Part shown: positions 2,202 to 3,038 of the stretch, in pieces
Numbering within the stretch: position 1 is the first letter of the stretch
Layout of the letters: each line of letters begins with the position of its first letter
DNA from: a virus
Lineage: Duplodnaviria > Heunggongvirae > Uroviricota > Caudoviricetes
Strand: one strand, 5' to 3'
DNA: 4,546 nt
Virus record (IMG/VR): IMGVR_UViG_2675903429_000012
Translations under genes and position numbers: made by a program
The notes under the pieces: model-generated
Database searches by the model: none
What the model saw: the letters and a program-made list of their open reading frames with translations, nothing else
Told to the model about the DNA's origin: nothing

Positions 2202-2558
2202 TTATTCAGTTCTGGATTTTGTCGCCCTGCGTATCCGCGCTTTCGCGTTACGCTCAATCTGTATCAGCTTTTCTATATTTCTCCGCCTTTCCTGTTCCTC
2301 CTGGCGCAATAGCCTTACATCATCTGCCAGTCTGGTTTCTCTTTTTGCCACAGAGAGCATCCAGTCAAACGGCTCCACAACCGCACCGCAGATTTTACAG
2401 CGGACCTGACGCTCTTTTTCGTCAACCCGTACAGAGGCGTGATGGCAATATGGTCTTTCCGATGGCTCATAAAGAAAATTAACCTGATTACGAGGGTCAT
2501 CCTCTTTTACCGGAAATAAAACGATATTGCTTAACTCATCTTCTGGTTTTATTTCCAT
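2202..2558 (-). CDS. Hypothetical small zinc-finger-like protein, 118 aa (MEIKPEDEL...), with a basic coiled-coil-like C-terminus. The tracked ORF extends to 2615.
   Basis: AAGGAG lies 6 nt upstream of the ATG at 2556-2558, and the 19-codon extension contains two rare AGG codons. Motif PYCHH-x15-RCKICG, then an R/E/K-rich tail. The ATG at 2613-2615 abutting the ren-like stop is the alternative start. Confidence 0.6.
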   Translation of the reverse strand: MEIKPEDELSNIVLFPVKEDDPRNQVNFLYEPSERPYCHHASVRVDEKERQVRCKICGAVVEPFDWMLSVAKRETRLADDVRLLRQEEQERRRNIEKLIQIERNAKARIRRATKSRTE

Positions 2559-2615
2559 GCTCCTCTCCTTTGATGCGAATGCCAGCGGTAATTGAAGCCT
2601 GATAGCTAATTTCAT

Positions 2616-3038
2616 TCACAGTATCGCCTCCTGAAAATTACCCTGATAGAAAGCCAGTACACGCTGCATAGCTTCGCTCTTCCGGCACTCGCGACAGATT
2701 ATATTCAGGCGCCTGTCGTAGCGGCGTATTTCTCCGTCAGGTAATGACCAGATAAGGTCCGGATCAACAACAACCGGTTTCCTCACCTTTACTCTCGAGA
2801 GTTTTTTGCGGGCGCTTTGCCAGTCCTTGCGAGCCTGTTCAGACGGGAATAAGCCGTAGCCAGAATTATATACATCACCACTTGCGACCAGTTCTATGCA
2901 TAAGCGACCGACAGACGCACGACTGATACCTGTTTCATCTGACAACTGCCGAATCGTGACCCGACCGTCCTGATGCACGAGTTCCACAATTCGCGTCTTC
3001 AGTTCTTCCCGCTGTTCGGGAGTAAAAGGTTTCGCCAT
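2616..3038 (-). CDS. ren: Ren-like phage protein with an N-terminal HTH / winged-helix region, 140 aa
   Basis: C-terminal CRECRKSEAMQRVLAFYQG resembles the lambda Ren C-terminus as I recall it (FKECRQSAAMKRVLAVYG). It sits immediately after the P-analogue gene, as ren does in lambda. AGGAGG lies 4 nt upstream of the ATG. Confidence 0.6.
   Translation of the reverse strand: MAKPFTPEQREELKTRIVELVHQDGRVTIRQLSDETGISRASVGRLCIELVASGDVYNSGYGLFPSEQARKDWQSARKKLSRVKVRKPVVVDPDLIWSLPDGEIRRYDRRLNIICRECRKSEAMQRVLAFYQGNFQEAIL

Follow-up and report, generated by a model that had tools for sequence, protein, structure and literature searches.

A DUF977 relative of lambda Ren and a single-gene zinc-ribbon cassette, probably independent of each other, side by side in a decaying lambdoid prophage

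In bacteriophage lambda, ren belongs to the early lytic genes and acts against exclusion without being a cause of it, and we know of no established mechanism for its product. Hypervariable slots occupied by unknown small genes are normal in lambdoid phages, and the result described here will be unsurprising to a phage specialist. Among the small proteins described from such accessory regions is lambda Orf73, a TraR-like zinc protein (PMC8614690). DUF977 has been mentioned as a winged-helix fold (PMC2686095), and ydaW was a hit in a published screen as a blocker of a retron, retron-Sen2 (bioRxiv 10.1101/2020.06.22.160242).

Here we compare with these systems two adjacent genes in a defective, decaying, Rac-like (lambdoid) prophage of Shigella/E. 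coli, part of which is carried on the window, the whole stretch of 4,546 nucleotides that was analysed (IMG/VR record IMGVR_UViG_2675903429_000012). Every gene in this part of the window lies on the minus strand. Both genes are delayed-early accessory genes, located within the pR operon with replication genes on one side and nin genes on the other, in the hypervariable slot that extends from the replication genes to the hok/nin region. The features referred to below are:

3053..3738, minus strand: ydaV/DnaC-like helicase-loader gene, the counterpart of lambda P (ORF list, sequence and tblastn)
3038-2616, minus strand: DUF977/Ren-like gene, 140 aa (Pfam and PHROG matches)
2613..2618, minus strand: TGA stop of the DUF977 gene abutting an in-frame ATG, the alternative start at 2615 of a 137-aa ORF (read in the sequence)
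2587-2559, minus strand: 29-nt leader with a Shine-Dalgarno sequence (AAGGAG), GCTGGCATTCGCATCAAAGGAGAGGAGC, directly 5' of the ATG at 2558
2558-2202, minus strand: 118-aa zinc-ribbon/long-helix gene (phrog_1621 match and PGAP call)
2158..2587, minus strand: single-gene cassette common to Stx2a phages such as ArgO145 (megablast)

The helicase-loader gene, interrupted in the window by a run of Ns (3119-3375), is matched in tblastn at 99-100% by ydaV from related loci and is annotated in NZ_CP065615 as 'ydaV: ATP-binding protein'. Its end (3053) is separated from the start of the 140-aa ORF (3038) by 14 nt, in the window as in NZ_CP065615, so that the 140-aa gene occupies the ren position, as a sequence-only reading of the locus had proposed. 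In lambda, too, ren follows immediately on the helicase-loader gene within the pR operon of rightward early transcription, although it overlaps the end of P.

The same reading had likened the C-terminus of the 140-aa helix-turn-helix (HTH) protein to Ren, and this likeness is real, being narrow in pairwise comparison and whole-length at the level of the PHROG profile. The protein matches phrog_142 ('Ren-like exclusion protein') over residues 1-139 with an E-value of 2.7e-44, and lambda Ren matches the same profile over residues 1-95 (E 1.6e-41). PHROG files this family under morons. Pairwise and profile similarity between the two proteins is confined to approximately 23 C-terminal residues: BLASTP aligns residues 112-131 with Ren 73-92 (12/20 identities, E 3e-7), hhalign aligns 23 columns with 88.6% probability, and lambda Ren does not match Pfam DUF977 even at E<=1. 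Common to both proteins is the C-terminal motif N(I/L)(I/V)x(R/K)ECRxSxxMxRVLAxY, of which ECRxSxxMxRVLAxY is invariant across 10 DUF977 alleles and Ren, which gives mutagenesis a concrete starting point. A winged-helix-like region is present at the N-terminus of Ren as well. At 96 aa, Ren is 44 aa shorter than the window protein, much as had been estimated (about 45 aa), with the insert falling mainly at residues ~61-95 in the alignment. Judged by sequence and position, the 140-aa gene is thus a relative of lambda ren.

Assignment of the 140-aa protein to Pfam DUF977 (PF06163) is clear, with a score of 116.5 bits against a gathering cutoff of 22.1 (E 1.1e-33) and residues 1-136 matching positions 1-134 of the 134-position model. 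The parts of the protein are:

residues ~7-66: winged helix
residues 67-82: helix
C-terminal: conserved block PDGEIRRYDRR.NIICRECRKSEAMQRVLAFYQGNFQE

The N-terminal winged helix-turn-helix is recognised by Pfam HTH_24 (E 7e-6) and is modelled by AF2 with pLDDT >90 at residues 11-70, while the C-terminal half is of low confidence (pLDDT 42-62). Foldseek retrieves GntR, IclR and MarR winged helices at E ~5e-3. Between DUF977 alleles the winged-helix N-terminal domain is strongly variable and the C-terminal block highly conserved. A database protein 100% identical to the window protein, WP_001118169.1, carries the PGAP name 'DUF977 family protein', and relatives of 75-99% identity are named either in the same way or, in phage records, LygF, which a literature search on DUF977 and LygF traced to a mere locus name from a Salmonella region. 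DUF977 is present in 4437 of 5426 complete E. coli genomes (~80%; 8671 copies), and was met here more often than any other relative of lambda Ren.

If the DUF977 gene behaves as ren does, it would be transcribed from pR with the replication genes on infection or induction, and its product may be a DNA- or protein-binding factor that shields phage development against a system of abortive infection or exclusion. The reverse role, in which one or both genes are expressed in the lysogen and protect the host by superinfection exclusion or defence, would accord with the 'exclusion' label and moron filing of phrog_142, and with the observation that both genes are intact though the O-like gene of the prophage is broken. 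We nevertheless regard it as scarcely credible: lambda ren acts early in lytic growth and against exclusion, the two genes of the window lie within the pR operon and are flanked there by replication and nin genes, and searches of PADLOC-DB with the 140-aa protein gave weak, generic HTH matches at most (E >= 0.0017). In addition, a promoter and terminator scan, in which sites overall were not more numerous than in shuffled sequence, found no such-like site around either gene on the coding strand; there is therefore no pointer to lysogen expression, which argues against superinfection exclusion.

A lead towards an anti-defence role for DUF977 came from the retron-Sen2 blocker ydaW, since YdaW of the E. 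coli K-12 Rac prophage occupies the same slot as the DUF977 gene. This lead was rejected. K-12 YdaW is a different protein, consisting of a winged helix plus DUF1627, and its similarity to the DUF977 protein is a marginal one in the HTH (E 0.054), so the blocker result is not transferable to DUF977. Despite the shared slot and mixed annotation, K-12 YdaW is not a homologue of the DUF977 protein of the window.

Translation of the second ORF from the ATG at 2615 gives 137 aa, and translation from that at 2558 gives 118 aa. The phrog_1621 profile starts at residue 20 of the 137-aa ORF, the PGAP call for the gene is 118 aa and the family alignment begins at the same position; the ATG at 2558 is therefore the real start, in keeping with the earlier preference for this codon, which AAGGAG precedes, and with a conserved leader. 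This leader is identical or nearly so in all upstream contexts (DUF977, Ea22-like and others) while the sequence beyond it differs, and positions 2559..2587 mark the left edge of a mobile cassette. The abutment of the DUF977 stop and the upstream ATG (2618-2613), also noted previously, is present in the sequence. It is not conserved, however, the codon at 2615 in DUF977-adjacent loci being ATG in 20, GTG in ~27 and GTA, which is no start, in 5. For this reason a 137-aa isoform translationally coupled to DUF977 was rejected, and the tight linkage that had been read into the junction is not a conserved one.

The 118-aa ORF is a real gene under strong purifying selection, with a pN/pS of 0.047 over 37 distinct alleles. 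The 137-aa ORF matches phrog_1621 over residues 20-136 (profile positions 1-120 of 134, E 5.1e-56), and the 118-aa protein matches the related phrog_8538 and phrog_4865 at 6e-11 and 6e-9, respectively; all three are of 'unknown function', with neither a Pfam model nor a structure. The family is larger than PHROG suggests, with 1590 representative clusters at 50% identity (E<=1e-3). The sequence-only reading had been unable to place the protein in any family, and the profile searches agree: neither the protein nor its alignments match a Pfam or NCBIfam family or a PADLOC model, and there is no informative PDB or fold match, the best profile match among PDB sequences being a coiled coil at E 4.7. 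PGAP names it (WP_001343130.1) a hypothetical protein, the names of 120 relatives from the profile search are all 'hypothetical' or 'putative bacteriophage protein', and a literature search on accession numbers and phrog_1621 gave nothing useful. For distant metagenomic relatives the contigs that were read gave uninformative contexts, being ~1 kb in length, and RusA names contaminate one cluster. Three parts can be distinguished in the protein:

residues 10-16: NV(V/I)xFP motif, in an acidic N-terminus that is followed by a disordered linker
residues 38-57: CHCC zinc ribbon, C38-x-H40...C54-x2-C57
residues 63-117: single helix with nearly invariant NIEKLIQIERNAKARIRR

The Cys/His cluster pointed out from the sequence is conserved across 42 relatives down to 26% identity, with C38, C54 and C57 invariant and H40, as well as R50, nearly so; the N-terminal motif is also conserved. 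In the AF2 model (pLDDT 75 overall, >90 at residues 81-110) strands 43-46 and 51-54 form a small β-hairpin ribbon ahead of the helix. Four conserved ligands, two knuckles and a β-hairpin make up the pattern of a zinc ribbon, and metal binding is predicted. The 55-residue helix is amphipathic and arginine-rich and has the heptad pattern of a coiled coil, with 10/16 hydrophobic a/d positions in the best heptad register, and the family alignment shows it to be conserved on all sides. The N-terminus has a net charge of -4 and residues 84-118 one of +6.

In overall character the protein resembles TraR/lambda Orf73, DksA and Ogr/Delta, small zinc proteins with long helices from lambdoid accessory regions. 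The order of elements differs, TraR having its C4 finger between two helices, whereas in the 118-aa protein a ribbon is followed by a helix. The ligands of DksA/TraR are C4 in place of CHCC, the DxxDxA motif is absent from the 118-aa protein, and DksA/TraR PF01258 gave no match to the protein at E<=1 or to the 42 relatives at E<=0.01.

Whether the two genes form a functional pair can be judged from how often, and in what company, each occurs. The sequence-only reading had taken them as a linked pair, and if this were so they might constitute a translationally coupled two-gene exclusion or anti-defence module whose products act as a complex. Several features of loci similar to the window lend themselves to such a view. 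Among 94 copies of the 118-aa gene in a locus sample biased towards the window (the 80 IMG/VR contigs most similar to it), 47 adjoin DUF977 with a constant 58-nt spacer, a further 30 are separated by other genes, often Ea22-like, from a DUF977 gene no more than 3.3 kb away, 4 are uninformative and 13 are without DUF977, absence here being defined by one-query tblastn at E<=1e-5, which misses distant Ren-like proteins and did not recover lambda Ren itself. To the fixed spacer can be added the abutment of the DUF977 stop and an in-frame ATG in the window, and a block of at least 94% nucleotide identity in ON470612 that runs from the 118-aa gene into the C-terminal two thirds of DUF977, inherited as one block, so that the two genes can travel together. 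Rare 278-aa DUF977-118-aa fusion ORFs, formed by loss of the stop, were considered as Rosetta-stone evidence for the pair and rejected, because fusion ORFs of the 118-aa gene are also found with Ea22-like, DUF1133 and DUF1627 genes, the partner being simply whichever gene happens to be upstream.

Wider comparison counts against a module. Co-occurrence is rare, GenBank phage records with both genes numbering only 4 compared to 19 with the 118-aa gene and 24 with DUF977, and in the 5426 complete E. coli genomes DUF977 outnumbers the 118-aa gene approximately four to one (8671 versus 2135 copies). Alleles are decoupled, the 118-aa copies being 97-100% identical while the neighbouring DUF977 alleles are 54-100% identical. 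The codon proposed for coupling reads GTG or GTA, in place of ATG, at the majority of loci, and the 118-aa gene is found in DUF977-free contexts, beside Ea22-like genes and before the antiterminator Q gene in other genera. With these observations set against the adjacency, a two-gene module appears decidedly unlikely. We think it probable instead that these are two independent accessory genes of a decaying lambdoid prophage, one a Ren relative and the other a single-gene zinc-ribbon cassette, which would be adjacent since both sit in a recombination hotspot and not through joint function. The value of this result is corrective, in that DUF977 and the 118-aa gene are not to be handled or cloned as one module.

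The 118-aa gene is a self-contained one-gene cassette with its own ribosome-binding leader. Homology to the phage ArgO145 is limited to window positions 2158-2587, at ~95.6% nucleotide identity (megablast; query positions 59-487/488 of window:2100-3118), and corresponds to the 118-aa cassette, which in ArgO145 is gp17, in the early-left region, with an Ea22-like gene on one side and small hypothetical genes on the other. Copies are found in 1679 of the 5426 complete E. coli genomes (31%), with up to 5 in each. In Kluyvera, Erwinia, Photorhabdus, Pantoea and a Klebsiella phage the homologue is situated just before Q, and DUF977 was not found within ~5 kb on either side. Q is directly downstream in 5 of the 6 genome loci from other genera and comes from one or other of two unrelated Pfam families; the downstream gene of the sixth locus has no Pfam match, and in the Klebsiella phage ylcG lies between the homologue and Q. 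At least three slots have therefore received the cassette, one behind DUF977, one behind Ead/Ea22-like genes and one at the nin end before Q. Outside E. coli the homologue lies between NinG/RusA/DUF1364 genes and Q among non-essential delayed-early genes, a setting similar to that of small lambda nin proteins such as NinH. The 118-aa gene of the window differs in being at the opposite end of the region, adjoining the replication genes, and PHROG and Pfam searches revealed no sequence relation to NinH, matching only unknown-function groups.

The position before Q raises the question of a role in transcription. A TFIIB/S27e-like ribbon and an arginine-rich helix could together contact RNA polymerase or nascent RNA, so as to aid or tune Q- or N-dependent expression as an antitermination accessory, and the TFIIB zinc ribbon PF08271 does register on the family, at 21.1-21.5 bits in 5 of 42 relatives. 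This score is below the cutoff of 29, and zinc ribbons are generic. Homologues outside E. coli are directly upstream of Q genes of two unrelated families, but the link to Q is purely positional, and in E. coli the 118-aa gene is usually several genes away from it. Together with the lack of a match to DksA/TraR, Ogr/Delta and other RNA polymerase-binding zinc proteins, this makes an antitermination accessory very unlikely.

A further reading is a stand-alone counter-defence protein, whose invariant helix would bind and inhibit one conserved host immune or abortive-infection component and whose cassette would spread by benefiting any lambdoid phage. The gene is a single-gene mobile cassette in hotspots for accessory genes, is very widespread and is under strong purifying selection; the conservation of the helix on all sides suggests one fixed target; and co-transcription with early genes is probable, given the lack of promoter- or terminator-like sites around the cassette. 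On the other hand, no sequence or fold similarity to any protein of known function emerged from Pfam, NCBIfam, PADLOC or the PDB, nucleic-acid binding would explain a basic helix rich in arginine just as readily, and in other genera the gene has a stable nin slot before Q, among recombination and DNA-metabolism genes. Counter-defence as such we consider unlikely.

As a broader and tentative possibility, the family may be a large set of stand-alone phage effectors, adaptors that combine a zinc ribbon with a coiled coil and whose genes spread, one to a cassette, between lambdoid phages within Enterobacterales and outside this order. In this speculative model the invariant, arginine-rich helix would lock onto a single conserved target in the host, which might be a component of defence or abortive infection or else a core nucleic-acid machine, while the NV(V/I)xFP motif would recruit a second partner. 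In the reading of two independent genes that we favour, the protein would work alone as an oligomeric adaptor, its basic helix, conserved all round, binding nucleic acid or one conserved host protein and its N-terminal peptide docking the second partner, and it could in this way modulate host or phage nucleic-acid transactions in early lytic growth, like other nin/exo-xis genes. Present in about one third of E. coli genomes, often in multiple copies, with ~1600 clusters, strong purifying selection and no Pfam model, name or structural relative, the 118-aa protein merits inclusion in functional screens.

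The DUF977/Ren-like gene (gene 1) and the zinc-ribbon/long-helix gene of phrog_1621 (gene 2) are independent genes of the rightward early region, and gene 2 forms a cassette of one gene that brings a ribosome-binding leader of its own. These two genes and their neighbours in the window are all coded on the minus strand, with an insertion sequence on the plus strand at its far end:

4486-4546, plus strand: IS600 orfA, starting at 4486 (MSRKTQRYSKEFKAEAVRTV)
4447-4184 and 4014-3745, minus strand: O-like replication-initiator gene, as two ORFs in different frames
3738-3053, minus strand: ydaV, DnaC-like, with an N-run (3119-3375) inside
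3038-2616, minus strand: gene 1 (DUF977), 140 aa
2615 or 2558 to 2202, minus strand: gene 2, 137 or 118 aa
2054-1368, minus strand: queH, epoxyqueuosine reductase, complete (PF02677, E 2e-65)
1310-985, minus strand: hok/sok type I toxin-antitoxin locus (Hok PF01848; sok Rfam)
1138-985, minus strand: Hok ORF (PF01848, E 1e-22)
1135-1310: sok (Rfam model, 117 bits)
448-735, minus strand: phrog_340 gene, 95 aa
Past the phrog_340 gene, last in minus-strand order: DUF1367/NinB-like gene, start only

The closest complete genome, NZ_CP065615 (99.7% identity over 1019 nt), has an identical gene order within a Rac-like prophage that is riddled with IS elements and carries cI/cro-like, ydaT, O-like and ydaV genes; this makes the element a decaying lambdoid prophage of the Shigella/E. 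coli type. The prophage is defective, with a split O-like gene and IS600 orfA, but genes 1 and 2 have stayed intact. Compared with ydaV of NZ_CP065615 (747 nt), the ydaV span falls 61 nt short, and its 5' part (from 3738) and 3' part (to 3053) lie in different frames on either side of the 257-nt N-run; either the masked run does not preserve length or the gene is frameshifted. Between gene 2 and hok/sok sits queH, which looks like further inserted cargo, a prophage-borne tRNA-modification enzyme, because only some related loci have it in this position. The phrog_340 protein (a group of unknown function) recurs 3' of hok in many related loci; it had no Pfam match, and its Hfq-like match was non-significant (E 0.12).

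Both ORFs lie where the sequence-only reading had placed them, and the gene 1 stop (2618-2616) does abut an in-frame ATG (2615-2613). That reading had preferred the ATG at 2558, preceded by AAGGAG, and five observations bear this out: the phrog_1621 profile begins at residue 20 of the 137-aa ORF, PGAP gives a 118-aa protein, the family alignment also begins at the 118-aa start, a 29-nt leader, GCTGGCATTCGCATCAAAGGAGAGGAGC, is common to all genomic contexts, and at 2615 only 20 loci have an ATG codon, against about 27 with GTG and 5 with GTA. On these sequence grounds the correct start is that of the 118-aa protein, and the 137-aa start was rejected.

The suggestion that the two genes constitute an exclusion or anti-defence module is not supported, because of their counts, their mosaicism and the other contexts in which gene 2 is found. 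Among GenBank phages gene 2 is present in 19 records and DUF977 in 24, with both in only four (ON470619, ON470612, ON470583 and ON470580). Gene 2 is carried by 1679 of 5426 complete E. coli genomes (2135 copies, up to 5 per genome), while DUF977, with 8671 copies in 4437 genomes, is four times as numerous. We sampled 94 gene 2 copies across 92 fetched loci, those from IMG/VR being the best 80 of 504 contigs by similarity to the window. DUF977 lies directly upstream of 47 copies and up to 3.3 kb away from a further 30, with Ea22-like or other small genes intervening; 13 copies, each with an upstream flank of 1.5 kb or more, have no DUF977 detectable by tblastn, a screen that would miss distant Ren-like proteins, and 4 are uninformative. 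Across the fetched loci gene 2 protein copies are 97-100% identical, against 54-100% for the accompanying DUF977 alleles. A two-gene module would be consistent with the constant 58 nt spacing wherever DUF977 adjoins gene 2, with the co-inheritance of gene 2 and the C-terminal two thirds of DUF977 in ON470612-type phages, and with rare 278-aa DUF977-gene 2 fusion ORFs. However, fusion ORFs are also formed with Ea22-like, DUF1133 and DUF1627 genes, and argue only weakly for a pair since whichever gene lies upstream can be the partner. The 278-aa fusions (relatives P0390, P0391, P0394 and P0396; seven contigs in all) have a length of 140 + 1 + 137 residues, from which it follows that the TGA at 2618-2616 was lost.

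Independence of gene 2 is also apparent from its other surroundings. DNA homology to the Stx2a phage ArgO145 spans 2158-2587 only, and the homolog there belongs to the early-left region, 3' of an Ead/Ea22-like gene; that of Enterobacter phage Tyrion likewise has an Ea22-like upstream neighbour. In Kluyvera, Erwinia, Photorhabdus and Pantoea genomes the upstream gene encodes NinG, RusA, DUF1364 or DUF968, and antiterminator Q follows immediately downstream in five of six loci, the Q genes belonging to two unrelated Pfam families (PF06323 and PF06530). A Klebsiella phage has NinG, the gene 2 homolog, a small ylcG and then Q. Outside E. coli (L009-L015 and L096 among the fetched loci) the homolog is the final nin-region gene, a stable position that contrasts with its wandering in E. 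coli.

The gene 1 protein matches Pfam DUF977 over the entire model (116.5 bits; cutoff 22.1), and residues 11-59 match several winged-helix models. Its AF2 model has a confident winged helix (residues 7-66, pLDDT >90), then a helix (67-82) and a low-confidence C-terminal third, and Foldseek returned weak matches to GntR/IclR/MarR-type winged helices. Both this protein (2.7e-44) and lambda Ren (1.6e-41) match phrog_142, 'Ren-like exclusion protein', over their full lengths. Direct similarity is confined to a C-terminal motif by BLASTP (12/20 identities, E 3e-7), hhalign giving 88.6% probability over 23 columns, and a search of Ren against Pfam did not reach DUF977. When ten DUF977 alleles (54-100% identical) are aligned with Ren, the N-terminal winged helix is variable and the C-terminal block nearly invariant; at about residues 61-95 the alleles carry an insert with no counterpart in Ren. 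Gene 1 starts 14 nt past ydaV, whereas lambda ren overlaps the end of P. The shared phrog_142, C-terminal motif and position uphold the earlier 'Ren-like' label, which is justified from sequence and position. The C-terminal ~45 codons (2616-2760) are nearly invariant while the winged helix falls to ~50% identity, and mosaic breakpoints lie within the gene (ON470612 homology ends at 2898); the conserved 3' end may be a functional motif and also a recombination linker between modules.

The 118-aa protein had been thought unassignable to any family, rightly. Its named relatives, all Enterobacterales (Escherichia, Shigella, Salmonella, Klebsiella, Kluyvera, Erwinia, Pantoea, Serratia, Yersinia, Photorhabdus and Morganella), are 'hypothetical' throughout, and an exhaustive profile search found 1590 clusters (50% identity) with a limit of E<=1e-3 and 255 with E<=1e-10, the majority of them on unnamed metagenomic contigs. 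The cluster (90% identity) of the 146-aa Serratia relative P0129 also holds 127-aa proteins named RusA, which looks like a clustering artefact from overlapping or fused neighbouring genes. An acidic N-terminus (net charge -4, residues 1-30) with a conserved [D/E]-N-V-(V/I)-x-F-P motif precedes a zinc ribbon in which C38, C54 and C57 do not vary, and H40 and R50 hardly vary (42 relatives, to 26% identity). The AF2 model (mean pLDDT 75) has a disordered N-terminus, a small beta-hairpin ribbon and a single helix (63-117; pLDDT >90 at 81-110), in which the segment NIEKLIQIERNAKARIRR shows conservation around the whole helix; residues 84-118 form a basic tail with a net charge of +6, and in the best heptad register 10 of 16 a/d positions are hydrophobic. 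The pN/pS is 0.047 (37 distinct alleles, fetched loci).

No promoter- or terminator-like sites were found flanking either gene on the coding strand. Both genes would be expressed with the delayed-early transcript on infection or induction, and not in the lysogen. To our knowledge, no biochemical mechanism has been established for Ren. By analogy DUF977 may act like Ren, since lambda ren mutants are subject to Rex exclusion (Toothman & Herskowitz 1980, as cited in PMC10695390 and PMC8614690). For the 118-aa protein the probable role is that of an oligomeric adaptor made of a zinc ribbon and a coiled coil. Nucleic acid or one conserved host protein would be the ligand of its basic helix, which is conserved all round, and a second partner would be docked by the N-terminal peptide. 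We consider the structural and genomic account of both genes likely, and the specific mechanism for gene 2 rather doubtful. Both proteins are already in databases (DUF977 family protein; phrog_1621 hypothetical protein), the window copies are ordinary members of these groups, and nothing in either gene would surprise a specialist; the gene 2 protein, very common, strongly conserved and wholly uncharacterised, is worth a functional screen.

In the E. coli K-12 Rac prophage the slot after ydaV is occupied by YdaW (L107, 3253-3813), a winged-helix and DUF1627 protein rather than DUF977, with marginal similarity to gene 1 (E 0.054). A screen for retron-toxin blockers recovered ydaW (bioRxiv 10.1101/2020.06.22.160242); we rejected carrying this role over to gene 1, because the similarity is only marginal and the family another. 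Phage annotations confuse 'YdaW family' with 'LygF', and DUF1627 and DUF977 genes adjoin each other in some prophages.
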